A stretch of 32,000 nt of DNA from Pyrobaculum calidifontis JCM 11548. GTDB lineage: Archaea > Thermoproteota > Thermoprotei > Thermoproteales > Thermoproteaceae. Under the pieces are notes generated by a model that was given only the letters and a program-made list of their open reading frames with translations, was not told the DNA's origin and searched no databases. Positions 13,759-32,000 of the stretch are shown piece by piece. Within the stretch, counting starts at the first letter, position 1, and every line of letters begins with the position of its first letter. The DNA is taken from assembly GCF_000015805.1 (NCBI RefSeq), contig NC_009073.1, positions 690,001 through 722,000 on the forward strand, in the 5' to 3' direction. A program made the translations under genes and the position numbers.

Positions 13759-14007
13759 TTACCCTACCACCGGCTCAATTTGACAAACCTTCTTCTCGCC
13801 TGTATGCCAAGTAACGGCTCTATCCCTCTCTCCGCGGGGTATCCACTTCTTTTGAAATTCGGCGAAGGGTACACACTCCACTTCTATACACGCGTCGCGG
13901 TCTACATACGCGACACATACTATGTGTCTGTCGGCGAAGCGGGAGGCCCAGTCTACCTTGCGGCGGCGAAGAACAGGGGCCGCCCCTGCGGCTAACTCAC
14001 TCGCCCC
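13759..14007 (-). pseudogene. start-less ORF remnant abutting the AT-rich island
   Basis: 82 sense codons (GASELAAGAAPVLRRRKVDWASRFADRHIVCVAYVDRDACIEVECVPFAEFQKKWIPRGERDRAVTWHTGEKKVCQIEPVVG*) have protein-like composition. A TGA lies immediately upstream, and the only ATG/GTG/TTG is a late internal GTG. It was missed by the ORF track. Confidence 0.3.
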
Positions 14008-14208
14008 TCACCTCCGCCCTCAAGCCGCCCCTCTCCACCACCACGTCGAATGGTCAAATCATGGTATTTGCTAGAGCTCTTTGTTCTGTTATGATCTTTA
14101 TTTACATTTACGCTTTCACTAGGAAAGAATAGGTTAAGTATGTAGCCAGGTAGGACAAAAACAAAGCCGATATAAGTCAGAAAAAATAGTATAAAAATAT
14201 GCCTATAT

Positions 14209-14862
14209 TCATGAATAGTCTTGTCTTACATTTCTAGCTCTTTCCGTCCTAAATTGGACAAGTTTTATAAGTTCTCTATATAGATCCCTTATCTCGTTTT
14301 CACCAAATCCTAGAGATCCTAGCACAAATTTTTCCATCTCTAACCTTTCTAGTCTTTCTGCCTCATTCTCTATATCTTTAGGTCTAAGCCTAAGCATATT
14401 ATTGACAGTATCAAGGAATTCACTAAACTTATTGTTTTCTCTAAGATGTTTTTCTAACCATATTGGATTGATTATCGGTATTCTTTCATAGTCGGTCGTC
14501 TTAATGTCGAGAACTCCCTCTCCCAAGCTAGTTTGTCCAATTAACTCCATACCAATATATGTTATGACAGAATTTACTACGGCGAATAGTACTTCAGGAC
14601 TAACTCTTCCTCTGAATTCGTCTTTTATATAGCCTATGTAAAGTCTCTGATGGAACTGGGCATCGACAACTCTGTTTAGTAATACCCCATAATTTTTGTG
14701 TATGCCTTTCCTAAATATGAGTAGCCCACCTGAAGTATCAGTTAGTTTAGTCCAGTTATTATTGTTAACGATTTTATTATATAATGTTGAAAACTTTCTT
14801 CCATTACTAGTTACATATTTCTCTTTGACAAAATTTTCTGCCCATGCAAGGTACTCTCTCAT
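14209..14862 (-). CDS. C-terminal target-recognition (TaqI_C-like) part of the N6-adenine DNA methyltransferase, separated from the catalytic part by a frameshift
   Basis: LFAVVNSVITYIGMELIGQTSLGEGVLDIKTTDYERIPIINP resembles the conserved C-terminal block of type II/IIG gamma-MTases. This frame stays open upstream to about 15099, so the annotated Met is probably not a true start. Confidence 0.6.
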   Translation of the reverse strand: MREYLAWAENFVKEKYVTSNGRKFSTLYNKIVNNNNWTKLTDTSGGLLIFRKGIHKNYGVLLNRVVDAQFHQRLYIGYIKDEFRGRVSPEVLFAVVNSVITYIGMELIGQTSLGEGVLDIKTTDYERIPIINPIWLEKHLRENNKFSEFLDTVNNMLRLRPKDIENEAERLERLEMEKFVLGSLGFGENEIRDLYRELIKLVQFRTERARNVRQDYS

Positions 14863-15062
14863 TCCATAATCAGTAACATTATTTACGTCGTCGACCCAAA
14901 TTACATAATCTTCTTTCTTTAGAGTAGGTAGGGACTCTATTTCATAGGTAGAATTTTCTATGTGTCTTGGCGTTATTAACCTTCTTAAGTATTTTTTACT
15001 AATGGTTAAAGTTGTCCTTGGTTGGATCGTTTTTCTTACTACAAGATCGGTCGGTGTTTCTT

Positions 15063-16577
15063 TTACATATTCCCAATACTTGATGGTAAATAAAATATAT
15101 CATCTGCATTAGTAGTTAAGCCCCGTCGTATATCGATTATTTCGCCCAATAATATCAACCTATTATCATTATTATTTACAAAGTTCTCTACGAGATTTAA
15201 ATAGAGTTTTGGTCCTCTTAGTATGCCCAGTCTGCCTATTTTTGTCTCTATCTTTTCTATAAAATCTTTCTTTACTGTAACTACTCTATGCTTTTCGTTT
15301 TCGCATATGTTCAATTCTTTATTCTTAGCAACCGTGCAATTATCAAATTCATAATATAGTTCCATTATTCTCTTGTAATACTGCATGTTTGCCATGAAAT
15401 CGTTTGCAGGAGGGGGATCACCTATTAGTTCTCTAAGACTCTTCTTTAGAAAAACGAATCTCACGTCATAATTGCTCTGTGCTGTCATCTCAGCAATTAT
15501 TATGTTGGTTATTACCGCTGCGTCTTCAAACCATCTTTCAACCAGAGACTCAATGACATATTCGACACTGAAGTTTTTAAAAAGCCACTTCTTTAAGGGG
15601 GCCCCATATTCGGCATTGAGCCAAGAATTCTCAACAATAAAGCCTAATCTACCATTTTTCCTTAGTAATTTACCTCCTCTAACCAGAAAGTACGCGTAGA
15701 TTGATGCTCTCTCATCCCAGTTTTCAATATCTTTGACGTAATTTAATAAATTCTCTTTATATTGTTTATCATAAAATGCGAGAGCCATCTCTACTTGTTT
15801 AGTATAGGGGGGATTAGCCACAACGTACGCATAGTCTGAGCTGAGATTTATTTTAAAGAAATCATCGTGACATATTTTGGGTACATATTTGTATCCCTCT
15901 TTTATTTTTTCTAAGGCTTGTATGTAAAGATTTATCTTCGCAAGCATTGATGCTAATCTATCTATGTCAACTCCTTCTACGTATTCATATATAGGCATCT
16001 TCAATTTATCAAGCTCTGTACTATAGAAGATCTTCCAATAGTTTAGAGCTCTGACAAGGAAAGTACCAGAACCACATGCCGGGTCTAATAATTTATCGGG
16101 CTTGCCATATTTTTTAAATACGCCAGTAAGTATCAAATCTACGATTTTTGTATCTGTGTAATGTTGTCCTAGCAAGTGTCTACGTTCTTCATAAATGAGT
16201 CCTTCGAAGACTCTTCCTATAACGTCCACGCTTATATCGCTCCACTTTATCTGGTTGAGATACCTGACTATTTCCTTGAGCTTAGGAAGCGATGTGAGCA
16301 TAAAGGGTAGTCTATCTACAGTATTTACGCCGAAAATCTCTTCAAAGTCGCCTGTTTTACTTATAGCATAATTAAATAGCTCGTTAGCTATATTTTTAAA
16401 ATACTCCGGGTCTTGCGCATTCTCAATAGGCTTTATAGATTCTTGAAGTTTGGTTGCCATATCCGCATCAATACTTTGTAAAACTAGATAGAAGAGAAGT
16501 TTCATTGTAAAGGTATAAATTTGCTCCTTCAGAAGTAATTTGAGGAAATTGCGAAGCTCAGCGTCGTTTCTGGGCAT
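15063..16577 (-). CDS. gamma-class N6-adenine DNA methyltransferase, catalytic part (Eco57I/TaqI-like N-6 DNA methylase)
   Basis: Motif I LLDPACGSGTFLV and motif IV VVANPPYTKQ are in gamma order, and a downstream RRGLTTNADDIFYL block is present. The ORF ends in ...PSSIGNM*, while the coding signal continues in another frame. Confidence 0.85.
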   Translation of the reverse strand: MPRNDAELRNFLKLLLKEQIYTFTMKLLFYLVLQSIDADMATKLQESIKPIENAQDPEYFKNIANELFNYAISKTGDFEEIFGVNTVDRLPFMLTSLPKLKEIVRYLNQIKWSDISVDVIGRVFEGLIYEERRHLLGQHYTDTKIVDLILTGVFKKYGKPDKLLDPACGSGTFLVRALNYWKIFYSTELDKLKMPIYEYVEGVDIDRLASMLAKINLYIQALEKIKEGYKYVPKICHDDFFKINLSSDYAYVVANPPYTKQVEMALAFYDKQYKENLLNYVKDIENWDERASIYAYFLVRGGKLLRKNGRLGFIVENSWLNAEYGAPLKKWLFKNFSVEYVIESLVERWFEDAAVITNIIIAEMTAQSNYDVRFVFLKKSLRELIGDPPPANDFMANMQYYKRIMELYYEFDNCTVAKNKELNICENEKHRVVTVKKDFIEKIETKIGRLGILRGPKLYLNLVENFVNNNDNRLILLGEIIDIRRGLTTNADDIFYLPSSIGNM

Positions 16578-16652
16578 TTTAAACCCTCTTTCGCTAAACC
16601 ACCTATCAATAAGCTCCTTAACTTTAGCATTCCTCTTGTATTCGCTCTCAAG

Positions 16653-17798
16653 TTGTCCGACTCCATTAGAAGCACCCTCCTCAATAAGGCTCCTAAGAGT
16701 CTCAATAACCTCCTTGCTCAGATCGAGAGTCTTGCCGTCACAAAACTACTCTGGGGAAGAAACACCTCTGCTGTAAGAAGGCTAGCCGCCGCAACCTCCC
16801 TATTAAGACATTACAAGGTAATATACTTTGATACAGTGTTGTCTAGCTTTATAAAGGCAAATCTTCTAACTGAAGAGATCGGTGATGTAAAAAAACTATT
16901 TGAAATTATGGGCGAAAATGTAATAGCAATAATGGGGAGAGATCCACCTCGGGAGCCTAAAGAGGTAATGAACCTAATGGGGGAATTAGTTGCAAAAAGA
17001 GAATACGAGTTCCTAACAGCAGAAGAATACTTGCAAGATAATATAGACCTAAGCATTAGATGCATAAAGAATCTACATTGGGCGCTATGTCTTGGTGCTG
17101 TTTACCTATTAGAGAGACTTATAATAAAACATAGAGATAAAATTGGCGATATAGATATTAAAAGTTTAATAGAAGAATTAATCAAAAATCACGAATTAGT
17201 ATATAGATTCCCTATCCATCTATTTTCACAAATTAAAAAATTCGAACCAAGGGAACCATCTAGTTATTGGCAAAAAGTTTCTAATAAATACAGTGAGATT
17301 TATAATAAGCTTGAAAACACATATCTTAATACTAATGCGGCAAAATTTATAAAAGTGATAGAGGCGAGATATGTGGACAACAAATATAATAGCTACGAAG
17401 ACGTTTTAAAGAATACGTTTAGAGAAAGGGAAGATAAATACTATTATTATAGAGTCAATAAACCTACTGATACGTTTTATACGCAACTTTTGCAATTTAT
17501 GATAGGCTTTAGAGAGCTTGACACTTTTGATATAGAAGGCAAATGGTTCGCTCAAGGCGTACAATGGGAGGATTCGTTAGCAGAAATTAGAAGATGTCTA
17601 GAGTATATCAAAGGTAGAAAGAAAGCCGGGAAAGGTAGAAAGAAAGACGAGATAACTGAAAGAATCAATACATTTATGATGCGTATCTTCCCAAAAGAAA
17701 AAGATAAAAAGGACTTAGTAGCGGAGTGTGGAGAGAAATGTGCAAAAGCTCTAAAATATATGAAAAATTTTATGGAACTCATAGTGAAACAGCCCTAG
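16653..17798 (+). CDS. orphan hypothetical protein of the AT-rich island (helical, Lys-rich C-terminus)
   Basis: A 381-codon ORF in AT-rich DNA, where long ORFs are unlikely by chance. No motif recognised. The true start is probably downstream (GTG/TTG about 16834-16839 or ATG 16909), because the first 30 or so codons overlap a coding-looking minus-strand frame. Confidence 0.55.
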   Translation: MSDSIRSTLLNKAPKSLNNLLAQIESLAVTKLLWGRNTSAVRRLAAATSLLRHYKVIYFDTVLSSFIKANLLTEEIGDVKKLFEIMGENVIAIMGRDPPREPKEVMNLMGELVAKREYEFLTAEEYLQDNIDLSIRCIKNLHWALCLGAVYLLERLIIKHRDKIGDIDIKSLIEELIKNHELVYRFPIHLFSQIKKFEPREPSSYWQKVSNKYSEIYNKLENTYLNTNAAKFIKVIEARYVDNKYNSYEDVLKNTFREREDKYYYYRVNKPTDTFYTQLLQFMIGFRELDTFDIEGKWFAQGVQWEDSLAEIRRCLEYIKGRKKAGKGRKKDEITERINTFMMRIFPKEKDKKDLVAECGEKCAKALKYMKNFMELIVKQP

Positions 17799-18020
17799 TT
17801 AATAGTAGATATCTCATGGGGGGAATTCTTTGATATTTAAAAGCGGTGGACAAGGAGAATGTTTAAAGTGAGTGTAGAGAGGCCAAGTTATAACTACTTT
17901 GGCAATCTATTAGTTTCACTGGGGGCAAGAATTGCCGGATTTTAAAAGCTCACGCGTATCCCTGTTTGCGTCATGTCGTATCAAAAGTAGTTTTATATTA
18001 TGGTTATGTCACGGTGTAAT

Positions 18021-20835: not shown

Positions 20836-21154
20836 GGTTTTGGATAGGCTCTGCTCATCCGGCCCAATTGCGCTGGCGAGGCTCTGCGCGGCCTTCGCCC
20901 TCTTGAAGGCCCTTGAGGGGGCGAGGGGAGGCTACGTGGTGGTTAGGGCCTCCCTAGCCAGGGGGGTCGTGGAGGAGTGGCGCGGAGGCGCCTTTAGGAC
21001 CGCCGTAGAGGAGGCCCTACCCCACGTGGTGAAGAGGGTTAGGGCGAGGCTGGGCAGAGGGCCGGTCAGAGTGGTAGAGGCCAAGATTGCCCTAGCCCAA
21101 CTCGTCGAAGAGGAACTGCTGAGGGTAGCGAGAAGGATGGGCCTTTGGGTTTAA
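20615..21154 (+). CDS. hypothetical protein; the helical C-terminal 110 aa may be DNA-binding
   Basis: The convincing part starts near GTG 20816/20822 (VGEFEVLDRLCSSGPIALARLCAAFALLKALEG...). The start could lie anywhere in 20615-20822. Confidence 0.45.
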   Translation: MKQTMYRRAALADRGVALVSQNWPAALLPQSQQAPPLTAAQPLTPCLLNCAVAALTLDVWLGFAAPCVAVGEFEVLDRLCSSGPIALARLCAAFALLKALEGARGGYVVVRASLARGVVEEWRGGAFRTAVEEALPHVVKRVRARLGRGPVRVVEAKIALAQLVEEELLRVARRMGLWV

Positions 21155-21177
21155 CTTCTCTCACACACAAGGAGGGC

Positions 21178-21762
21178 GTGATAGTCCAAGTCTGGCATTC
21201 AAAAGGAGGCACCGGCAAAACAACTGTAGCCACTTCGCTGGCCATAGCGCTGTCAAAGTCTTGGGGCCGCACACTCTACGTGGAGGTGGGCCCGGTGCCC
21301 GTGGGCGTGAAAATACTGGGCGTTGAGGCGGACGGCAAGGTGCACGAGGGCCGCGGCGATGTCCTTGCTGTGTACTTGGAGGACGACTCTCAACTTCCTC
21401 AGCTGTTGGAGAAAGTGGGCAACGACGTCATGGCCGTTGTCGTTGACTACCCGCCTTGCATTAAGCCGGGGGAGGGCGGCCTGCTTGTGCCAGTTGCGGA
21501 CTGGCTCTCCGCCTCGACGCTTGAGAAGACGAAGGCGAAGGTCGCGGTGTTGAACAAAGATAGGGGCTTTGAGTTCAAGCTGACAACGGCGTCTGAGGTG
21601 GTCAAGCTACCCTTCTCCTACGCCGTGGAGAGGGCTGTGGCGGAGTACGTCCCGCCGGTGCTTGTGAGGCCCGCCTCGCCTGAGCACAAGCAGTTTGTCG
21701 AGGGGATACGCCGCCTCGCAGACAGAGTCATCGAGCTGGCCGGCCTCAAGAGGGGGCCATGA
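21178..21762 (+). CDS. ParA/MinD/VirC1-family P-loop ATPase
   Basis: The N-terminus (V)IVQVWHSKGGTGKTTVATSLA carries the deviant Walker A KGGxGKT, and VVVDYPP is Walker B-like. GTG 21178 is preceded by GGAGGG; the track start is TTG 21145. Confidence 0.8.
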   Translation: MIVQVWHSKGGTGKTTVATSLAIALSKSWGRTLYVEVGPVPVGVKILGVEADGKVHEGRGDVLAVYLEDDSQLPQLLEKVGNDVMAVVVDYPPCIKPGEGGLLVPVADWLSASTLEKTKAKVAVLNKDRGFEFKLTTASEVVKLPFSYAVERAVAEYVPPVLVRPASPEHKQFVEGIRRLADRVIELAGLKRGP

Positions 21763-22160
21763 GACGTCTCATCGACGCGTCGGCGGCCGTGCTCTCGGCC
21801 GTCCTATCGCCTCTGCTGAAGAGGCGGGGGAGGGAGCCGCTGATTTACCGCCTTCTTCGCGAAGAGGAGAGGAGGTTCAAGAGGGAGTGGCGTAGGCCGC
21901 TCCGCATTACGGAGAAGTTCAAGCCCGGCTGGCGCGACCAAGAGGCCTGGCGCCTGGCGAAAATGTGCAAAAACGCCGACTCCTGCTACCCGAGGATACG
22001 CTACCTGCTGTATAAACACGGCCGCGCCGTTGTGGAGTGGCTCAACTCGCTGTCCCACAGACGCGTCGACATAGACGCCGCTGTGAGGGTGGCTGTGAAG
22101 TACAGCCTCAAGTCGAGGCAGGTGGAAGACTGCGTAAAGCTTGGCCTCTGCGAGGTATGA
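21759..22160 (+). CDS. hypothetical basic protein
   Basis: 133 aa, with ATGA overlaps at both ends (ParA-like gene upstream, ATPase gene downstream). Confidence 0.5.
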   Translation: MRRLIDASAAVLSAVLSPLLKRRGREPLIYRLLREEERRFKREWRRPLRITEKFKPGWRDQEAWRLAKMCKNADSCYPRIRYLLYKHGRAVVEWLNSLSHRRVDIDAAVRVAVKYSLKSRQVEDCVKLGLCEV

Positions 22161-24094
22161 TCTCCTGGCTTCGCAACTACTACAAGTCTGTCCCCGCCAT
22201 CCTCTTCATAGTGCTACTCGCAGGCGTAGCCTTCCCACCGCTCTTCTTGGCGGTCGCCGTCGGCATACTACTCGTCGGCGAATACCTCTTCCTCAGACTG
22301 TCCAGAGAGCCTCTTGAGCCAGAGAAAGAGGAGCGCAAGCTGGGCGACGTCGCCGCCTCATACGACCCGCGTCGCCGTTGTTATCACTTCTTCTGGCGAG
22401 TAGAGCCCCTCTACACTGCCCTGGGAAGGGAGGCGCTGCCATTGGTACACCACATGTTGAACGCCGCGTCGCTTAGGGAAAACGAGGCACTCGCCTACAT
22501 CCACTCGTACTCCAAGTACCTACGGTTCACAGTCTGCAAAACCGACGAAGACACGGCGCTGAGGAGGGCACTGGAGGTGGAGGAGGGCCTCAAGACCCTC
22601 TTCGTCATGAAGAGGGTAGAGGAGCCGCCCCTCTGCTCTATCAAGAAGCCTCCCCGCGCCCCGCTTTACATCGCCGCCGTAGTCCTCGCCGTGGTTGCCC
22701 TAGCCTCCACAGCAAGCCCCTACATCGCCCCTCTGCCCCGCTGGGCCGCCCCGCTCTTCGCCTTGCCCACCGCCCTCGCCCTCTGGGCTAAGTGGAGGTG
22801 GTTCGAGAGGGCGTACTGCGTCTCTCCCCTGCCCCTAGAGGCCATGTCCTATAGGTTTGACGACCTTGACCAGAGGGCGGAGGCCCTCGACGGAAACGCT
22901 GTGCAGGAGGCGTCTTCCCTCAGCCGCGCGATGGGGCACTGGGCCGTCGTCTTTAAGAAGATGCCCGAGGCCGTCGCCTACCAAAAATACGGGAGGAAGC
23001 TGGTGTCGATTAGGGAGGACGAGAAGACTACGCGGGAGGTGCAGAAGTACTTGGCCATGCGGGAGAGGATTCAGAGGGGGGAGTCCTACATCTACGTCAA
23101 AGTGTTCGGCGAAGCCGACTACCACGGCACCACCACCCACTTGCGGAAAGACCCCATCTCCACCGCCGTGTTTTGGCAGCTAGACCTCTGGCACGACGCA
23201 CTTTCGGGCGGCCTAACCCGCTTCCCCATCTTCTACGGCGGCGCCCACCTGGAGAGCGGAAAGAGGTACGTGACGCTGGGCGAGGAGCACGTGACGAGGA
23301 GAGAGGTGACAATAGACGTGGACTCCCTCCCCGCGCCGCACTTGTTGATATTCGGCGGGTCTGGAATGGGGAAATCGAAGACAATGGCCTGGCTGTTGAG
23401 GCAGTTCCGGGACAAAGGAGTTAGAATCGCAATTATCGACCCCCACGGGGACTACCGCTGTACTGCTGAGGAGTTCGGCCTTGTGGACCTTCCCAAGAAC
23501 GCCCTGCCTCCCCTCGACGAGGCGTCCTACGCCAAAATCGCCGCTGAGTTCGGCATGTCCGCCGGCGAGGCGTTGGAGAAGCTTGGCTTCAAGGTGCTGA
23601 GAGAGGTGCCGGAGCAGTACAGAATATCGCTCTTGGGCCTAGACCCGCTACGCCAATCTTTCTTGGTGACGGCGTGGTTGTTGTACGAGTTGAACAGGGT
23701 GAAGGACGAGCACAGGGAGAGGCTTGAGCGGGTCGTTGTGGTGGATGAAGCATACCTCGCCAGGGGGCCCGTCCTTGAGATGCTGGAGTTTATGGCCCGG
23801 GGCGCTAGAAAGTTCGGAATGGCCGTCTTCCTCATCACCCAGATGCCCGGCGACATACCCGAGGCGCTTAGGAACATGGCCTCCCTAATGCTGGTATTCG
23901 GCGGCAATTGGACGTATTTGAACCACGTCCGCGAAGTCCTTCGCCTAACGGCAGACGACATGTCCTGGCTTATGACTGGGAGGGCGCCGAGGGAGACCGG
24001 CGGCATGGTAAGAGTGCTGGCGGTACTCGCGCCTGGCTCAATCAAGAAGAAGCTGGAGATACAGCTCCCGTCAGACGTCTTCGAATGCGCATGA
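22157..24094 (+). CDS. membrane-anchored FtsK/HerA/VirB4-superfamily ATPase (CedB/VirB4/TraG-like candidate)
   Basis: There are two hydrophobic hairpins (AILFIVLLAGVAFPPLFLAVAVGILLVG; LYIAAVVLAVVALAS...PLFALPTALALWA). These are followed by Walker A LLIFGGSGMGKSKT, IAIIDPHGDY and Walker B RVVVVDEAYL. ATG 22157 forms an ATGA overlap with the upstream stop. Confidence 0.8.
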   Translation: MISWLRNYYKSVPAILFIVLLAGVAFPPLFLAVAVGILLVGEYLFLRLSREPLEPEKEERKLGDVAASYDPRRRCYHFFWRVEPLYTALGREALPLVHHMLNAASLRENEALAYIHSYSKYLRFTVCKTDEDTALRRALEVEEGLKTLFVMKRVEEPPLCSIKKPPRAPLYIAAVVLAVVALASTASPYIAPLPRWAAPLFALPTALALWAKWRWFERAYCVSPLPLEAMSYRFDDLDQRAEALDGNAVQEASSLSRAMGHWAVVFKKMPEAVAYQKYGRKLVSIREDEKTTREVQKYLAMRERIQRGESYIYVKVFGEADYHGTTTHLRKDPISTAVFWQLDLWHDALSGGLTRFPIFYGGAHLESGKRYVTLGEEHVTRREVTIDVDSLPAPHLLIFGGSGMGKSKTMAWLLRQFRDKGVRIAIIDPHGDYRCTAEEFGLVDLPKNALPPLDEASYAKIAAEFGMSAGEALEKLGFKVLREVPEQYRISLLGLDPLRQSFLVTAWLLYELNRVKDEHRERLERVVVVDEAYLARGPVLEMLEFMARGARKFGMAVFLITQMPGDIPEALRNMASLMLVFGGNWTYLNHVREVLRLTADDMSWLMTGRAPRETGGMVRVLAVLAPGSIKKKLEIQLPSDVFECA

Positions 24095-25836: not shown

Positions 25837-26103
25837 TTGCCCTTGGCTAGACGCTACTTAGAACTGTGCAGGAAGTGGATGGTGGAGCGCATCTTGTCGG
25901 AGTTCAAACCCGCCGAGGCCCTCGCCGCAGAGCTGGCATGCCGAGACGGTTGTGCCGTCCTCAGCAGAGACGTGGGTGTGGTTAAGGCGGTGGGCAACTG
26001 CGGCGTGCCAGTGTTTTTGTTTCTGCGGGGCCGCCTTTGGCTTGTGGAGGCGGCCACGGCGCACTCCGCCGCGTCCAGCGAAAGCTTTAAGGCAATTGCG
26101 TGA
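25837..26103 (+). CDS. hypothetical protein (possible PIN-like C-terminal half)
   Basis: 88 aa from a TTG start. AEALAAELACRDGCAVLSRDVGVVKAVGNCGVPVF resembles the C-terminal strand-helix-strand of PIN-type nucleases (weak similarity). Confidence 0.4.
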   Translation: MPLARRYLELCRKWMVERILSEFKPAEALAAELACRDGCAVLSRDVGVVKAVGNCGVPVFLFLRGRLWLVEAATAHSAASSESFKAIA

Positions 26104-26366
26104 TGCGCGACGCGTCTGTCGTCTTCATCTTCGCGGGCTGTCCTCCAGAGGAGCTTCTCGAGCTAAGGCGCTTTGGCTATCTGCTGGTCTCAACGGCGGA
26201 TTGCCAAGGCGTAGAAAAGGCGGTCGACGTCAAGGCCTACGTCCGGGGCAAATTCGCAGTGGTGGTAGGAGACGCCGAGCTGGCCAAGAGGCTGGACGTG
26301 GGGTGCATGGCGTGGGAAGAGGCGTTGGACTTCTTAAGGTGTGCTCGACGTAGAGGAGAGGGTTAG
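26100..26366 (+). CDS. hypothetical protein
   Basis: 88 aa, with a GTGATG overlap with the upstream stop. No recognised motif. Confidence 0.45.
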   Translation: MMRDASVVFIFAGCPPEELLELRRFGYLLVSTADCQGVEKAVDVKAYVRGKFAVVVGDAELAKRLDVGCMAWEEALDFLRCARRRGEG

Positions 26367-26567: not shown

Positions 26568-28067
26568 ATGTATAAACTGGAGTGGGATATGAGGGCTAGG
26601 TGGCTCTTCGCGGCGGCTTTGGCTGTGGCTGGGCTTTGGGCTGGGTGGACTGTCTACACTTGGCCTCACGTGGTGCAGTTCGTGCCCTCGTTCGCCGTGG
26701 CCTACAGCAGAGGGCTGGGCCAAGAGGTGGTGGTACAAGTGGTGAACCAGTCGGGCCACCCGGTGGACTTCTGCGCCTCGCTGATAGGCTGGTTTCCCAA
26801 CGGCACCCTCGCAAAGCTAGACGACGTGTGCGGCAGAGGAGAGGCAAAGGCAAACGTGGAGCGGTTTAGGAAGTACGCAGAGGCTTGGAAAAACTCGCCG
26901 GGGGAGGTGGGGGTAATAGTACTGCTGACATACGTCAACGGCACAACCCCAGACGGGAACTACACACTGGCACGCACGGCGAAGAGCTTCACAATACAGC
27001 CGGGCCGAGTGCTGAGGGGAGAGAGCGTGAGAGCCACGATAAAAGTCAAGGGAAAGCCCCCCACCCAGCCGCCCAAGGGCAGACAAGCCGCCGCTCTGGC
27101 ACTGCAGAGTCCGGGGCAAATGGCCCTACAGAGCTGGCCACCGGGCATGATGGCCCAGTGTATAACGGGGAGTGTAGTAGTCTGCTACTACTGGATATTG
27201 GACACAGTCTACGTGAATCAGACCAACACAGAGATACCGCTGGTGGCGGCTAGAGTGTCCACTGGGTGGGAGGCCTCACTGATAAATGATGTATACGTCA
27301 ACTATGTCCTAGCCGCCTCTAGTAGCAACTACGTCTACTTTTCAGGCGGAGCGGCGATCACGTATGTCGTCAACGGCGTAAGCATGCCCCAAGGCTACTC
27401 CGCTGACATATACACACTTGCTATCAGTGACAGCTCCTTCAAGTTGAGTAAAGGACTAACGATGATTCCCTATCAGCAAGGCCCCGGTATCGTCGTTGTT
27501 GGCTTTAAGGGCGACTACGCCGTTGCGCGTTATAGTGAGGTTCAATGTATCGTATCTATTGGGGCTTCCTGTGCTCCAACCAACTACTACGCCATCTTGT
27601 ACATGGTAAGGCCTAACGTTACTAATCCTACGTCCTACGGCGAGGTGTTGTCTCTGAGCAGCTATGTGGGCGACATGTTCAACTTGGTATCTAAGTACTG
27701 GAACAACCACACAGAATACGGCGGATCTGACGTAAGCGTAAATTCCATTACCACGGTCTCTGAGAATAACGGCATAAATATTTTGGCATTGGGAATACCG
27801 CTTATAAAAGAGCCACAAGATACAATAGTAGTGAATACCGCGTTAAATTTAGCCGTTGGCGTAGGCGCCAGTACACAAATTACCGCATTAGGAACAGCTT
27901 CCGCTGCGCTAAACACAAACAATCCGAAGTACTTCATATACGCCGTGTACTACCTGCCCCCCGTGAAGTTTGAATACCAAGGCGGCTATTACCCGCTCCC
28001 CTCGCTGTTTGTAGACTTCAGAGTGGGTGTTTCAACGCTTGACAGAGACGCAGAGGGCACGACGTAG
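26568..28067 (+). CDS. large secreted/membrane-anchored beta-rich protein with many N-glycosylation sequons (candidate surface or pilus-associated protein)
   Basis: N-terminal anchor MRARWLFAAALAVAGLWAGWTVY, with multiple N-x-S/T sequons (NGT, NYT, NQT, NVT, NHT...) and Ser/Thr/Asn/Val-rich composition. An A8-containing TATA-like box (GAAAAAAAATAG, about 26537-26549) lies about 25 nt upstream of ATG 26568. Confidence 0.7.
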   Translation: MYKLEWDMRARWLFAAALAVAGLWAGWTVYTWPHVVQFVPSFAVAYSRGLGQEVVVQVVNQSGHPVDFCASLIGWFPNGTLAKLDDVCGRGEAKANVERFRKYAEAWKNSPGEVGVIVLLTYVNGTTPDGNYTLARTAKSFTIQPGRVLRGESVRATIKVKGKPPTQPPKGRQAAALALQSPGQMALQSWPPGMMAQCITGSVVVCYYWILDTVYVNQTNTEIPLVAARVSTGWEASLINDVYVNYVLAASSSNYVYFSGGAAITYVVNGVSMPQGYSADIYTLAISDSSFKLSKGLTMIPYQQGPGIVVVGFKGDYAVARYSEVQCIVSIGASCAPTNYYAILYMVRPNVTNPTSYGEVLSLSSYVGDMFNLVSKYWNNHTEYGGSDVSVNSITTVSENNGINILALGIPLIKEPQDTIVVNTALNLAVGVGASTQITALGTASAALNTNNPKYFIYAVYYLPPVKFEYQGGYYPLPSLFVDFRVGVSTLDRDAEGTT

Positions 28068-28097: not shown

Positions 28098-28103
28098 TTT
28101 TTT
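28098..28103 (+). terminator. oligo-T terminator candidate
   Basis: CCCCCTCCTTTTTTCG lies about 30 nt after the stop of 26568..28067. Confidence 0.45.
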
Positions 28104-28225
28104 CGTCGGCTTTGTCCCATACACGTCGCGTAGCCTACCTAGGCTGAGCGACACTTGTGGTGCAGAGCAGTAAAGCGGCGGTTATTGAGGAGCAAAGACT
28201 TTTTCCAGCGTAAGAAATCTCCTAC

Positions 28226-29164
28226 GTGGGCAAGAGGAGGGAGGGGGACCCCCTGGAGGGCCTGGAGGGAGTGGGGCCAAAGACGCTGGAGCGGCTTAGG
28301 GAGCTGGGGGTGACGTCTGTGGAGCATCTGGCGGAGTTCACTGTGGAGGAGCTTGTGGAGGCTGGCGTGGAGTACGACCGCGCCGTCAAGATCCTCCAGC
28401 AGGCAATACAGCGCGTCGGCACGACGCGTCCCATGACCGCGAGAGAGCTTAGGACGCAACAGCGCAGGGCCTTCAAAACCGGCGTCTCGGAGTTCGACGA
28501 GAAGACTCCCTGGCGCGGCATACGCGAGGCCTTTATCTACGAATTCGCGGGGGAGTTCGGCGCGGGGAAGTCCATGCTGGCTCACCAGCTCTCTGTTGCG
28601 GCCCTCGCCCAAGGCTTCACCACGCGTGTGGTGTACATCGACACGGAGGGGACATTCAACGACGGCCTCGTCGAGGCTGTAGCGAAGAGGTTCAACTTCG
28701 ACGCCGACAAGGCGTTAGAGGCAATCGTCGTCTATCAGCCCGCCAACGTTGTCCAGCTTGAACAGATTGTGAAGTTCGACCTGCCAAGACACATCGCCGA
28801 GGGTTGCCGCCTCGCCGTAATCGACACCATTACTGCGCTGTACCGCGCCGAATTCGTTGGGAGGGAGATGCTGGCCGCCAGACAGCAACGCATCCACTAC
28901 CTCGTGGACTGGCTGAGGAGGCATGCCAGGACTTTTGGGCTAACGTCGGTGCTCACTAACCAGGTCATGGACGTGCCAGAGGCCTTTTCCGTGGGCAAGA
29001 GGCCCGCCGGCGGCAACGTGTTGGCACACGCGGTAAACGCCAGGTTCATGATGTCCCGGCCCAACAAGGCAAAGGCGGAGGGCTACATGTGGCCGCTGGA
29101 CGTGCCGGGGATGCCCCCCGACGTGAGGATTGACTACCGCATCACAGATGCGGGGCTGGAGTAG
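28226..29164 (+). CDS. RadA/Rad51-family recombinase paralogue (full length, with N-terminal HhH domain)
   Basis: The HhH region reads LEGLEGVGPKTLERLRELGVTSVEHLAEFTVEELVEAGV. Walker A is FAGEFGAGKSM (canonical RadA has GEFGSGKTQ) and Walker B is LAVIDTITALYRAEFVGREMLAARQQ. The C-terminal VLTNQVMDVPE...PAGGNVLAHAVNARF is colinear with RadA. Confidence 0.9.
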   Translation: MGKRREGDPLEGLEGVGPKTLERLRELGVTSVEHLAEFTVEELVEAGVEYDRAVKILQQAIQRVGTTRPMTARELRTQQRRAFKTGVSEFDEKTPWRGIREAFIYEFAGEFGAGKSMLAHQLSVAALAQGFTTRVVYIDTEGTFNDGLVEAVAKRFNFDADKALEAIVVYQPANVVQLEQIVKFDLPRHIAEGCRLAVIDTITALYRAEFVGREMLAARQQRIHYLVDWLRRHARTFGLTSVLTNQVMDVPEAFSVGKRPAGGNVLAHAVNARFMMSRPNKAKAEGYMWPLDVPGMPPDVRIDYRITDAGLE

Positions 29165-29325
29165 CCCTTTACCTTTTCTATGTCAAACCGCCGCCGGCGC
29201 CGTCAAAAGCGGAGAGCCAATTGTCCTTCTCGGCGGCTATCCAGCGCTTGGCAAAGTTGAACCCGCCGCCTCAGCCTATACAGCCTTGATAAGCACACTT
29301 TACCAAGTTTTCTTTGTTTCTACAA

Positions 29326-30216
29326 ATGTCCATGAGACCTGAGTACTTCTTCCACCTTGTCGTTGCGGCTGAGGGTAATGCCCTTGTCACCGGCCTCCCC
29401 GGCTCTGGGAAGACGACGCTTGTGAAGAGGGCTCTCTCAAACGTTCCCAGGGATTTTGCCGTGGTTGTGCTGGATACGGCCGGCGAGTTTCGCAGGTGTG
29501 ACTACGCCGGCCCGTTCTCGGTCAACCCGCTTGAGCTACCGCCTCTCCAGCTGGTGGAGGTCTTGGAAGAGTCTCTGCGCGCCACATATGGGGAGTACGC
29601 CTACGTGTGGACGCCGGCCATGTCCGAGGTGTTGCTAATGGCCGCCCAGAGGGCGCGCACTCTGGCGGAGGTATACGAGAGGGTGTTAGAGGCCGCGCCG
29701 CCCCACATGGTGGACACCGCCCTCGCAGTTAGGAGGAGGCTCCTCCACTTCGCGAGGCAATTTGAAGCCACAGACGTCCCAGTGGAGGCTGGCAAGTCCA
29801 CTTGCGTGGACATATCGGCGTTGGACAGAGTGGCCCGTGTCGCATACGTCCTAACGCTGTTGGAGCTACACCGCAAGGCGCACAACGTCATCTACGTCGT
29901 CGACGAGGCGCACCGATTCTTCACCACGTACTACCCACTCCTCGTGGACCACTTGAGGACGGGGAGGCACAGCGGCCGGTTCTTCGTCCTGCTAAGCCAC
30001 TCGCCGAGGGAGTTCGCTAGGCACATGGGCTACGTCAAGGTGTGGGTGAGATTCCCCGAATTCGACATGGACCAACGGCAAGGCGTCCACTGGCACCCCT
30101 CAGTGGCGTATGTGACGGTGTACGCCGCGTCCAAGAGGTCCGCGGCGGCTCTTGCCGCATTGGGCGTGCCTCTCAGAGGCGCCAAGGCGGAGTTCGCCAT
30201 GGAGGTAACGCCGTGA
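29326..30216 (+). CDS. soluble HerA/VirB4-like (DUF87-type) P-loop ATPase
   Basis: Walker A NALVTGLPGSGKTTL, then VVVLDTAGEF and Walker B VIYVVDEAHRFF. ATG 29326 is chosen (track start TTG 29314). Confidence 0.75.
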   Translation: MSMRPEYFFHLVVAAEGNALVTGLPGSGKTTLVKRALSNVPRDFAVVVLDTAGEFRRCDYAGPFSVNPLELPPLQLVEVLEESLRATYGEYAYVWTPAMSEVLLMAAQRARTLAEVYERVLEAAPPHMVDTALAVRRRLLHFARQFEATDVPVEAGKSTCVDISALDRVARVAYVLTLLELHRKAHNVIYVVDEAHRFFTTYYPLLVDHLRTGRHSGRFFVLLSHSPREFARHMGYVKVWVRFPEFDMDQRQGVHWHPSVAYVTVYAASKRSAAALAALGVPLRGAKAEFAMEVTP

Positions 30217-30797
30217 GTCGGGCCAATAGGCGCGCCGACCCCCTCCGCATAGCCCTTGAGAGGCTTAGGCGGGACTTCCCCGGGAAAAGCCGCTCTTGGA
30301 TCAAAAGGGCTTTGTTGAGACTGCCGTATGTGCGTGAAGTAAGAGATGGCCTCTACGTCGTGGAGGGCGTGAGGGAGCTGGGGGATTGGAAGCCCCTCTA
30401 CCAAGTGTGGTGGAGCGGGCGGGAGGGGCGTTGGGAGTGCACGTGTTATTATTCGACGTGGGGGTGGAGGAGGCGGAGGGGCATATGCACACACGTGGCC
30501 TCTGTCCTCCTCTATCGCCGCTTCAAGAGGGCGGTGGAGGCAGTTGAGAACCGCCCCGTCTACTTCGCATCAGCTGAGGTGGAGTGTGTAAACGTGAAGG
30601 TGAGGGGGTCGCTGGAGCACCGCATCACCCCCCTCGAGAAGGCTGGGTCGCTCCTCGACTTCGCCAGGGGGAGGCGGTATGTAGTTTACATAATCGCCGA
30701 GGGGCCGTCTGCCGAGCTGTTGTGCGACGGGTCGCCGGTGGAGCTGGCGTGGGAGAGGCTCAGCCTAAAAGTGGCCAAGGCCCTCCTAGAGGGCTGA
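30213..30797 (+). CDS. SWIM zinc-finger protein
   Basis: WECTCYYSTWGWRRRRGICTHVASVLLY fits the SWIM pattern CxC-x(n)-CxH. GTG 30213 forms a GTGA overlap with the ATPase stop; the longer track ORF from 30042 would overlap the ATPase gene. Confidence 0.7.
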   Translation: MSRANRRADPLRIALERLRRDFPGKSRSWIKRALLRLPYVREVRDGLYVVEGVRELGDWKPLYQVWWSGREGRWECTCYYSTWGWRRRRGICTHVASVLLYRRFKRAVEAVENRPVYFASAEVECVNVKVRGSLEHRITPLEKAGSLLDFARGRRYVVYIIAEGPSAELLCDGSPVELAWERLSLKVAKALLEG

Positions 30798-31019: not shown

Positions 31020-31481
31020 ATGCCCAAACCCGCGTTTGCGGCAGTGGCGCTGGCCGCGCTTGTGCTGGCACAGCTCGCAGTGGCGCAGGCCACAACTACG
31101 CCTGCCAGCGGCGGCGGTGGCGGCGGCGTTACCAGCGTGGAGTTTTGGCAGAACATCGCCTCTGGCGTGGGGAAGTGGCTTAGGGCAATATTCGCCATCG
31201 CCTTCTGGTCTTCTCTCATCTTGTTGACCTTCTACGCCATTATGACCCAAGTGGCGCCCTCCAAGGTCTTCCGGCTGGGCGCATTGGTGGACCTCATCGA
31301 GAGCGTGAAGACTGTGTTGTTAGGCATCTTCGTCTTCACAGCCTCCGTCACCGGCATTATCGCAGGCGTGGCGGCCATAGCCAACGCCTTCGGCGCCTCC
31401 TTCGGAGTATCGCCAATCGACGTAGTAAACGCCCTCATATTCCAGCCAATAGTAGACATGGTAAAAGTGGTAACTGGGTAG
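31020..31481 (+). CDS. VirB2/TrbC/CedA1-like conjugative-type pilin candidate
   Basis: Signal peptide MPKPAFAAVALAALVLAQLAVAQA, then TTTPASGGGGGG. Two long hydrophobic helices (WLRAIFAIAFWSSLILLTFYAIM and TVLLGIFVFTASVTGIIAGVAAIANAF) are joined by a charged loop. This is the helix-loop-helix hairpin architecture of T4SS pilins. The call rests on architecture only. Confidence 0.55.
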   Translation: MPKPAFAAVALAALVLAQLAVAQATTTPASGGGGGGVTSVEFWQNIASGVGKWLRAIFAIAFWSSLILLTFYAIMTQVAPSKVFRLGALVDLIESVKTVLLGIFVFTASVTGIIAGVAAIANAFGASFGVSPIDVVNALIFQPIVDMVKVVTG

Positions 31482-31485
31482 GGCA

Positions 31486-32000
31486 ATGACGCTTACCTCA
31501 AACACGCCCCTTTTTTCCACCTCTCCTTCCCTCTCCTCGCCTACTCCCTCGCCCTCCCTAGCCCTCTTCCTCCCCTCCACAGGCATACCAGTGCTGGACG
31601 TGGGGCTGGCTGTGCTGGGGGCCATGGCCACATACGGCGCAATTCTCTGGCTCATGGGGGTTAGGCGCCTTAGGGAGGAGGCTGTGGACGCCTTTCTACA
31701 CGCCATATTCGGCGCGGCGCTGTTCGCAGTGGCCCTCGTCATTGGGAACTTGGCGGTGCAGGCCGCTTCGGCCTACTACGACTATGCCAATGTAAGCAAA
31801 TTGTGCTTCAACCTCGCCGGCCAGCCGAGCTTGCTCGACGACTATAGGCGCTGGATTAACGCCACTATGAGGTGCGCCGCGGGCAACTTCTCAAGGTACG
31901 CAGACGCCGCCGCGGCCACACTGTCTGACATGTTCACCGGCGTGGCTGTGCTCGGCTTGCTCCCCGTGGTTCAGCAGTTCGCCTTCTCCTTCATGCAGAT
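31486..32000 (+). CDS. polytopic membrane protein, 5' part only (VirB6/TrbL/CedA-like candidate); runs off the window
   Basis: ATG 31486 lies 5 nt after the pilin-like stop, and the frame is open to nt 32000 (171+ codons; absent from the track because no stop is reached). The sequence begins with a Ser/Pro/Thr-rich N-terminus, then reads GIPVLDVGLAVLGAMATYGAILWLMG, FLHAIFGAALFAVALVIGNLAV and FTGVAVLGLLPVV. Confidence 0.5.
   Translation, partial: MTLTSNTPLFSTSPSLSSPTPSPSLALFLPSTGIPVLDVGLAVLGAMATYGAILWLMGVRRLREEAVDAFLHAIFGAALFAVALVIGNLAVQAASAYYDYANVSKLCFNLAGQPSLLDDYRRWINATMRCAAGNFSRYADAAAATLSDMFTGVAVLGLLPVVQQFAFSFMQ

Follow-up and report, generated by a model that had tools for sequence, protein, structure and literature searches.

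A divergent full-length RadA paralogue recurs at the Ted DNA-exchange locus of Thermoproteales

Our analysis of a 32,000-nucleotide stretch of the archaeon Pyrobaculum calidifontis JCM 11548 (contig NC_009073.1, positions 690,001 to 722,000; the whole stretch is called the window here, and coordinates count from its first letter) centres on the gene at 28226-29164 on the forward strand. This gene encodes a real, divergent, full-length paralogue of the recombinase RadA, with an N-terminal helix-hairpin-helix (HhH) domain and a Rad51 core, and the paralogue is a recurrent, non-housekeeping component of the Thermoproteales exchange of DNA (Ted) locus. An earlier reading of the same letters, referred to below as the original prediction, had singled out the gene as a divergent but complete RadA paralogue embedded in a transfer-like cluster. 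Part of the picture is already published: the Ted cluster, the co-location of a recombinase gene and the idea that DNA transfer and recombination are coupled have been described, most likely under a wrong gene name. What is new relative to the literature we searched is the identity of the gene, a three-tier family of full-length RadA homologues (T1, T2 and T3, defined below), the loss of a polymerisation-motif phenylalanine in T2 and T3, and the class-specific SWIM zinc-finger partners of these proteins.

Results

A complete but divergent member of the RadA/Rad51 family

The open reading frame (ORF) at 28226-29164 (+) begins with a GTG start codon and encodes 312 amino acids. By exact-sequence match the product is ABO08188.1 / WP_011849446.1 / UniProt A3MU71 of P. 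calidifontis JCM 11548; its UniProt name is 'RadA', and the consecutive accession numbers leading to TedC, the pilin of the Ted locus, imply the locus tag Pcal_0762. The Pfam Rad51 domain (PF08423) spans residues 83-310 (E 8.4e-38, 130 bits against a cut-off of 22). The HhH domain (HHH_5, PF14520) occupies residues 10-59 (28253-28402, +), with 31 bits against a cut-off of 27, and coincides with helices at residues 9-64 of an AlphaFold2 (AF2) model. This model, built on 18 family members, has a predicted local distance difference test (pLDDT) score of 87.9, and Foldseek matched it to full-length RAD51/RadA filament protomers with template-modelling (TM) scores of 0.81-0.85 at ~29% identity. In alignment, the protein is colinear over residues 9-312 with the RadA proteins of Pyrococcus furiosus (1pzn) and S. 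solfataricus (2bke), which bears out both the HhH domain and the RadA/Rad51 colinearity of the original prediction. Among its relatives the HhH domain is degenerate in clade b and in the Vulcanisaeta members of T3, where no PF14520 match is found. PADLOC and PHROGs searches with the paralogue returned nothing beyond generic RecA/UvsX-like or P-loop matches.

Canonical RadA is delimited by two curated NCBIfam models, with cut-offs of 361 bits (TIGR02236) and 259 bits (NF003301). The window protein falls below both, at 165.5 and 188.9 bits respectively, where the canonical RadA of Pyrobaculum oguniense reaches 513 and 504 bits; it is indeed divergent as well as complete. A search of 5.8 billion proteins, a search of representative sequences, a scan of one genome per species and a tree together yielded three tiers of full-length RadA homologues. 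T1, the true RadA, is 50-57% identical to the S. solfataricus and P. furiosus proteins (513/504 bits) and is found in Vulcanisaeta, Caldivirga, Pyrobaculum and Thermofilaceae. T2, from Thermofilaceae, Vulcanisaeta and Thermoproteaceae metagenome-assembled genomes (MAGs), is 38-42% identical to the same two proteins and 42-46% identical to the window protein, and passes one of the two cut-offs at 292-330 bits. T3, the clade of the window protein, is 30-33% identical to the two reference proteins, fails both cut-offs at 100-189 bits and occurs in Pyrobaculum, Thermoproteus, Caldivirga and Vulcanisaeta. A neighbour-joining tree of 181 sequences (Kimura distances, 100 bootstraps) places the paralogue in a distinct T3 clade with a bootstrap value of 99%. 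The original prediction had considered a full-length paralogue of this kind unusual; it belongs instead to a large family that extends across Thermoproteales and Thermofilales, and is not rare in the lineage.

The question of a second, canonical radA can be answered at the level of the genus. The single chromosome of P. oguniense TE7 carries a canonical RadA (WP_014348026, T1) together with two T3 copies (L008, L010), and the canonical Pyrobaculum gene has housekeeping neighbours, among them UDG and a TYW2-type methyltransferase. We rejected a housekeeping RadA identity for the window gene on three grounds: the two failed cut-offs, the coexistence of a canonical RadA in the genus and the housekeeping context of that canonical gene. 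Nor does the protein belong to the short paralogue classes. On the RadB model (TIGR02237) it scores 77.2 bits against a cut-off of 172, and it has the N-terminal domain, while its best KaiC-family matches, which bear on an aRadC/KaiC-like identity, reach 28-32 bits against cut-offs of 232-248. The T. tenax genome paper makes no mention of RadA.

Several genomes and contigs hold more than one member of the family. V. distributa JCM 11216 has five RadA-like loci, four of T3 type (L046, L050, L060, L068) and one of T2 type (L030), and one Pyrobaculum MAG has three paralogue copies, two of them adjoining Ted-like genes. A T2 gene and a true RadA gene lie 2-8 kb apart on one contig in Thermofilaceae and related MAGs (L041 512-4707, L047 4540-8656, L061 1638-11655), and T1 and T2 fall within ~3 kb of each other on the Thermofilaceae contigs L041 and L047. 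NCBI gives the Infirmifilum T2 protein WP_460024245 the name RadA on the strength of the one equivalog cut-off, out of two, that it exceeds; annotation thus conflates T2 with true RadA. In the Vulcanisaeta JCM drafts (L064, L066-L069), RadA-like genes are broken into two or three adjacent ORFs; T2-type and T3 genes are split alike, and we regard sequencing frameshifts as likelier than pseudogenes.

Conserved catalytic residues and an altered polymerisation motif

We aligned T1, T2 and T3 with the S. solfataricus and P. furiosus RadA sequences. The likeness of the window protein to canonical RadA (1PZN, 2BKE; TIGR02236/NF003301) takes in the HhH N-domain, the colinear RecA core, a TM score of at least 0.8 to filament protomers, and the catalytic and DNA-binding residues. 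T3 retains the P-loop, Walker B (LAVIDT), the catalytic Glu (YIDTEGTF), the L1 arginine (YRAEF) and the ATP-cap Asp (LDVPG). The L2 region TNQV...KRPAGGNVLAH (28955-29029, +) is near canonical in length, and residues 250-270 (L2) have low pLDDT in the model, as expected of a flexible DNA-binding loop.

Against this background the differences stand out. The window protein is 31-33% identical to the two reference RadA proteins. Its Walker A motif GEFGAGKSM (residues 109-117; 28550-28576, +) has an intact P-loop and has lost the Gln after GK[ST], reading GKSM where canonical RadA reads GKTQ, and TPWRGIRE (residues 94-101; 28505-28528, +) stands in place of LLGGGIET. Both changes had been picked out in the original prediction and are located where it described them; both are conserved in >100 homologues, the second within the wider signature FDEKTPW[RGK]G[ILV]R, and they are therefore family signatures rather than noise. 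T3 further differs from RadA by the loss of four residues from the QLPxxxGG loop that follows the Walker A helix, by a 2-residue insertion in the C-terminal hairpin, and by the absence of the Lys-rich N-tail of Thermoproteales RadA. A change from GGH to GGN was considered as a paralogue signature and rejected, as GGN is also found in T1 of Pyrobaculum, Vulcanisaeta and Thermofilaceae and in many other RadAs.

The most telling difference concerns polymerisation. At the FxxA position of canonical RadA the window protein has the degenerate motif P69-M-T-A72 (28430-28441, +). The Phe is present in every T1, S. solfataricus and P. furiosus sequence, the RadA of Pyrobaculum, Vulcanisaeta and Thermofilaceae included, and is replaced across T2 and T3, where the motif reads V/A/P-x-x-A/L/V. 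The strand aligned with RAD51 'VAYARAF', which we take to line the pocket for the FxxA Phe, is IFYARAY in T1 and IVVYQPA in T3. Judged from these residues, the paralogue is a probably active RecA-family protein, able to bind ATP and DNA, whose protomer-protomer interface is remodelled, and we infer that it would make no canonical homofilaments and would serve as an accessory factor.

Recurrent linkage to the Ted locus

The ORF at 31020-31481 (+) is, by exact-sequence match, WP_011849449.1, which is TedC (Pcal_0765; structure PDB 8DFT), with a signal-peptide cleavage site between AVA and QA in agreement with the published one (PMC9905601). The transfer-like cluster of the window is therefore the Ted locus that Beltran et al. 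2023 described, including TedC as a conjugative-type pilin (PMC9905601). Its order in the window is a ParA-like gene, TedB, two unannotated genes, two 88-aa genes, a 499-aa gene, the RadA paralogue, a 300-aa ATPase, a 194-aa gene, TedC and TedA, so that the paralogue stands three genes upstream of tedC.

For a survey of context, every ORF of 70+ loci was searched with the window proteins. Of the 28 T3 loci examined, 10, from at least four sub-clades, have the T3 gene in or beside a Ted/VirB4-type cluster. At locus L012 of a Pyrobaculum MAG the RadA paralogue is accompanied by AAA, SWIM, TedC and TedA, and Ted genes are also near the T3 gene at the Pyrobaculum MAG locus L042. Two clade-b metagenome contigs (L072, L076) keep the Ted gene set at 49% protein identity. 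On L076 the order is ParA, TedB, two genes, AAA, SWIM, h88a, the 499-aa protein, h88b, the RadA paralogue, TedC, TedA and lastly a giant ORF; it departs from the order of the window in where the paralogue, ATPase and SWIM genes stand. Vulcanisaeta-type loci (L062, L069, L077) likewise have the T3 gene in or beside Ted/VirB4-type clusters, and in L077 it abuts a T2SSE ATPase, ParA and VirB4. At L074 and L075 a VirB4/TraG-like ATPase and a primase lie ~7 kb from the T3 gene.

The paralogue therefore co-occurs with homologous transfer clusters elsewhere (L012, L042, L072, L076, L077, L062, L069). Of the two outcomes that would have refuted the original prediction, a sole radA of housekeeping type and absence from such clusters, neither was observed. 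The embedding in a transfer cluster proposed in the original prediction recurs in divergent Ted loci, but does not extend to the orthologues of the P. aerophilum group and of Thermoproteus, which lie in metabolic or housekeeping surroundings. We conclude that the association of T3 with Ted is old and recurrent, and is not obligatory.

A separate observation concerns one of the two 88-aa genes, h88b. It is found 1.5-3 kb upstream of unlinked P. aerophilum-group T3 copies, next to a ParA-like gene (L002 6667-6894, L006 8272-8514, L009 8246-8488), and may be a remnant of ancestral Ted linkage. Two loci have a true HerA helicase (HAS-barrel, DUF87, HerA_C) 7-8 kb away from the T2 gene (L043 1532-3616, L063 17080-18579), which hints at a link of T2 to the end-resection machinery.

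SWIM-type neighbours of T2 and T3 genes

The 194-aa gene between the ATPase and tedC (30213-30797, +; Pcal_0764) encodes a SWIM-type zinc-finger protein with an extra C-terminal beta domain, as seen from its CxC..CxH motif, alignments and an AF2 model (pLDDT 86.6). Its GTG start codon shares bases with the stop codon of the ATPase gene upstream (GTGA), and the two genes are translationally coupled in every Ted locus. In the window protein the motif is CTC-x16-CTH; across the SWIM partners that we aligned, C[STD]C-x(14-17)-C[TS]H is invariant (19/19), and most have CTHVAAV. The family comprises 240 detected homologues, some of which NCBI names 'SWIM zinc finger family protein'.

SWIM genes keep company with T2 and T3. 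They lie no more than 4 kb from a RadA-like gene in 10 T3 loci and 13 T2 loci, and at six loci (L038, L043, L044, L053, L055, L061) the SWIM gene and the T2 gene, at its 3' end, share 7-19 nt. T3 genes are accompanied by the long form (~190-200 aa, with the C-terminal beta domain), T2 genes by the short one (107-145 aa), and no SWIM homologue was seen beside T1 alone. A profile of the family compared with human ZSWIM7, using an approximate query sequence, aligned over the 31-residue motif only, with 57% probability, which is not evidence of specific kinship. In the literature searched, we found no paper that links archaeal RadA paralogues with SWIM proteins.

The 'Rad50' of the published Ted locus

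Rad50 has an ABC/SMC head, a long coiled coil and a zinc hook, and is typically >800 aa long. None of the three is present in the window protein, which folds like Rad51 and is 312 aa long, and a Rad50 identity does not apply to it. Pfam searches for SMC_N, AAA_23 and the Rad50 hook found none in the paralogue, in the other ORFs of the locus scanned or in the genes called in homologous contigs. The Ted loci of Pyrobaculum and Vulcanisaeta are nonetheless said to carry rad50 recombinase genes (PMC9905601), and a 2025 paper repeats 'ParA or Rad50' for the Ted locus (PMC11823120). The supplements of the Ted paper do not name the gene called Rad50.

The published 'Rad50' of the Ted locus is most likely this Rad51-fold gene, because the locus has no Rad50-like gene, the UniProt name of the paralogue is 'RadA', and its linkage to Ted is found in the same two genera. 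The label is probably a naming slip carried into later models. Both papers picture the 'Rad50 (recombinase)' as coating single-stranded DNA (ssDNA), a description that fits RadA/Rad51 (PMC9905601, PMC11823120). The two accounts agree on strain, locus and genera, and in proposing that DNA import and recombination are coordinated. The original prediction had put forward a coupling of transfer to recombination as a hypothesis of its own; the Ted authors had already proposed, for the published locus, that DNA import is coupled to homologous recombination through the co-located recombinase gene (PMC9905601).

The upstream region

Archaeal transcription terminates at oligo-T runs. A T6 run at 28098-28103 (+), 31 nt past the stop codon of the 499-aa gene, is a plausible termination signal of this kind; the run named in the original prediction is present, and its role as a terminator is putative. 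The inverted repeat AGCCTAccTAGGCT described there is found exactly at 28132-28145, but is at chance level: each kb of the window has some 2.7 inverted repeats whose stem is 6 bp long, and this one was not found upstream of orthologues. We rejected it as an operator on these two grounds, chance frequency and lack of conservation.

A difference in promoters separates linked from unlinked copies. T3 copies without Ted linkage have a TTATAAAA/TTTAAAT TATA box ~27 nt upstream of the start codon (L002, L006, L008, L013 and L015 were compared), whereas in Ted-linked copies (28190-28225 in the window, ~6120-6153 in L012) a CTTTTTCC or GTTTTTCC element replaces the TATA box. This hints that the two groups are regulated differently.

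Other genes of the locus

Three ATPase genes neighbour the paralogue, which the original prediction had placed next to secretion-type ATPases. The first gene of the cluster (21145-21762, +) encodes a ParA/MinD (VirC1-like) ATPase, recognised by Pfam CbiA/AAA_31 and NCBIfam ParA. TedB (22037-24094, +, with a gene call from 22157 taken from L005) is a VirB4/HerA-type ATPase by Pfam (DUF87, TrwB_AAD_bind, HerA_C) and NCBIfam. The 300-aa P-loop ATPase (29314-30216, +, starting at TTG 29314 or ATG 29326) was assigned from Pfam AAA_16/AAA_22, gene calls and jackhmmer, and jackhmmer relates it to the TedB/HerA ATPase domain. It matches the PADLOC model mad8 (E 2e-11) and, weakly, a phage terminase family, and is kept next to the SWIM gene in L012, L072 and L076. 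It is likely the 'HerA-like helicase' of the Ted papers, and may alternatively be the 'TedD' of the literature.

Two small conserved genes of 88 aa each, h88a and h88b (25837-26366, +; phmmer, jackhmmer), accompany the RadA paralogue in Ted loci, including divergent ones. Between them and the paralogue lies the gene for a 499-aa protein with a hydrophobic N-terminus and no Pfam match (26568-28067, +), which is conserved in the divergent Ted locus L076. TedA, a VirB6/CedA-like channel (PMC9905601), begins at 31486 (+) and leaves the window at 32000 after its N-terminal part; the gene is 310 aa long in L003. Directly after tedA, just past window position 32000, a giant ORF without Pfam match follows, of 5058 aa in a P. 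calidifontis-type contig (L003 3435-12501+) and 5334 aa in the divergent L076 (14450-20954+). Its presence in both makes it a conserved Ted neighbour. A 2026 preprint has 'colossal surface layers' of hyperthermophilic archaea as its subject.

Elsewhere in the window, a low-GC island at 14000-18000 (GC 0.33-0.39 against ~0.6 around it) holds a Type II/IIG-like N6 DNA methyltransferase (15063-16577, -), a methyltransferase-like fragment (14209-14862, -) and an unannotated 381-aa ORF (16653-17798, +). It is probably a horizontally acquired restriction-modification island.

Discussion

A candidate mediator at a DNA-exchange machine

We propose, at about even confidence and from the sequence and context described above, that the paralogue acts as a recombination mediator, which would engage Ted-handled ssDNA with help from the SWIM protein, and perhaps from the adjacent ATPase, and promote the formation of RadA filaments. 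In this mechanism the paralogue would form no long homofilaments through the canonical interface. As partners it would have the SWIM protein of the neighbouring gene and, perhaps, the HerA/VirB4-like ATPase whose gene separates the two. It would engage ssDNA handled by the Ted machine and nucleate, cap or stabilise filaments of canonical RadA, with the outcome that imported DNA would be recombined into the chromosome. The model would have two parallels, in eukaryotic Rad51 paralogues with SWS1/Shu2 and, as a functional analogy, in DprA of bacterial transformation. DprA is a dedicated mediator at the bacterial DNA-import machine and passes ssDNA to RecA. The likeness is one of function only; the DprA fold is unrelated to that of the RadA paralogue, and the direction of transfer and the loading activity are putative here. 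As a speculation, a mediator specific to the lineage would also fit the replacement of the canonical ssDNA-binding protein by ThermoDBP in Thermoproteales (as cited in PMC7776575).

The nearest relatives of the window protein, the T2 group (42-46% identity), share its full length, the loss of the FxxA Phe and the presence of SWIM neighbours. They differ from it in keeping GKTQ and the QLPxxxGG loop, in passing one RadA cut-off, with 313-330 bits, in pairing with the short SWIM form, and in lying sometimes near true HerA and not near Ted. RadB and aRadC/Ral (Sso2452, SsoRal1) are RecA-core paralogues that accompany RadA and modulate recombination. They are short proteins without the N-terminal HhH domain, unlike the window protein, with its 77 bits against 172 on the RadB model and weak matches to KaiC-like models.

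A number of observations weigh against a mediator that belongs to Ted. The close orthologues (80-82% identity) of P. aerophilum (L002), Pyrobaculum sp. WP30 and P. oguniense (copy 1) have no Ted or SWIM neighbours, and neither has any of the Thermoproteus T3 loci; with close orthologues away from Ted, under TATA-box promoters of their own, the paralogue is not exclusively a Ted part. The tree supports T3 itself well, but the clade that unites every T2 and T3 locus, together with five unclassified representatives, reaches a bootstrap value of only 30%, and the deep nodes are not resolved, including T2 monophyly and whether T2 and T3 together separate from T1. A canonical RadA of P. calidifontis itself is extrapolated from its congeners; none of the 15 listed members of the 148-member Pyrobaculum RadA cluster is from this strain. 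The tie between the paralogue and the SWIM protein is a genomic one, of gene adjacency and overlap. The Pfam SWIM match is below threshold (E 0.007 for the window protein, 0.007-0.04 among the partners), and neither a PDB profile search nor Foldseek with the model of the SWIM protein gave a match to Shu2/SWS1. Finally, with its catalytic and DNA-binding residues complete, the protein could just as well be an autonomous recombinase.

Alternative roles

This last point leads to the strongest alternative, which we judge unlikely while granting it real weight: that the paralogue is a Dmc1-like strand-exchange recombinase for Ted DNA, working through its own modified interface and separately from RadA filaments. 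No ATPase or DNA-binding element is missing, nor is the HhH domain; the family is strongly conserved, and the AF2 model agrees with RAD51 in its active-filament conformation. T2 and T3 show concurrent changes in the donor motif (F to P/V) and in the acceptor strand (A to Y/I), which could amount to a new self-interface instead of a loss. Set against this are the loss of the FxxA Phe, which is typical of accessory paralogues of RAD51, and the canonical RadA that always accompanies the paralogue. The SWIM partner, too, is a hallmark of the accessory Rad51-paralogue complexes of eukaryotes (PMC6316741).

An improbable alternative has the Ted-like cluster, or some of its copies, mobile as an integrated conjugative element, with the gene as its cargo or for its maintenance. 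The paralogue would then serve the element, for instance in donor-DNA processing or homology-driven insertion, and not host repair. Multi-copy genomes would fit such an origin (two copies in P. oguniense, three in the Pyrobaculum MAG, four of T3 type in V. distributa JCM 11216), as would the primase and VirB4/TraG-like ATPase near T3 in L074 and L075, and the weak matches of the AAA partner to the PADLOC mad8 model and the phage terminase family. The window argues otherwise: its ORFs scanned between 19 and 32 kb have no integrase-type Pfam match, it contains no tRNA gene, and the cluster has a base composition like that of its surroundings. The order of the locus is conserved and chromosomal in divergent lineages, and the Ted authors argue that the system has been domesticated (PMC9905601).

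That the paralogue instead limits RadA, and might restrict the recombination of foreign DNA, seems to us very doubtful. Sso2452, a short Sulfolobus paralogue, is reportedly a negative regulator of RadA, and a protein that has lost the polymerisation Phe, has an altered interface and is encoded at a DNA entry machine could cap or poison RadA filaments. The sequence does not tell inhibition from stimulation, and the SWIM-associated Rad51 paralogues of eukaryotes are positive mediators (PMC6316741, PMC11339404). Equally far down the scale is a fortuitous neighbourhood, in which the gene would be a second RadA of general use, functionally unconnected to Ted: the metabolic or housekeeping contexts of the P. 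aerophilum-group and Thermoproteus orthologues would suit it, but four sub-clades or more repeat the adjacency, with protein identities down to ~42-49% and gene orders that are otherwise rearranged, and the taxa agree with those of the 'rad50' report (Pyrobaculum and Vulcanisaeta) in the Ted paper.

Likeness to the Shu complex

The proposed mediator role brings to mind the Shu complex (SWS1/Shu2 with SWSAP1, Csm2-Psy3 or RFS-1). In both cases a Rad51-family paralogue coexists with the main recombinase, and a small CxC...CxH SWIM protein is tied to the paralogue, in the archaea through the adjacency or overlap of genes; the mediator role is a third, proposed likeness. The archaeal SWIM protein, however, matches Shu2/SWS1 significantly in neither sequence nor fold once the motif is set aside. 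Most paralogues of the Shu complex are highly degenerate, whereas the archaeal paralogue keeps the HhH domain and the full catalytic set. A wider proposal, which we regard as a long step and rather unlikely, is that T2 and T3 with their dedicated SWIM partners would be an archaeal counterpart, possibly a forerunner, of the Shu complex, and that T3, with the HerA/VirB4-like ATPase, would have been recruited to Ted to channel ssDNA into RadA recombination.

Implications

The organisms are not genetically tractable (PMC9905601). A complex behind the pairing with SWIM proteins, if there is one, would be the first system in prokaryotes to resemble SWS1 with a Rad51 paralogue, would offer small thermostable proteins for structural work, and would bear on the origin of the eukaryotic Rad51-paralogue mediators. 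Thermoproteales and Thermofilales have up to three classes of full-length RadA homologues, a family undescribed in the literature we searched. For the Ted locus, the likely identity of the published 'Rad50' would shift the step that can be assigned to it, to control of the presynaptic filament rather than end tethering or resection, and makes the RadA paralogue a candidate for handing Ced/Ted-imported DNA to recombination.

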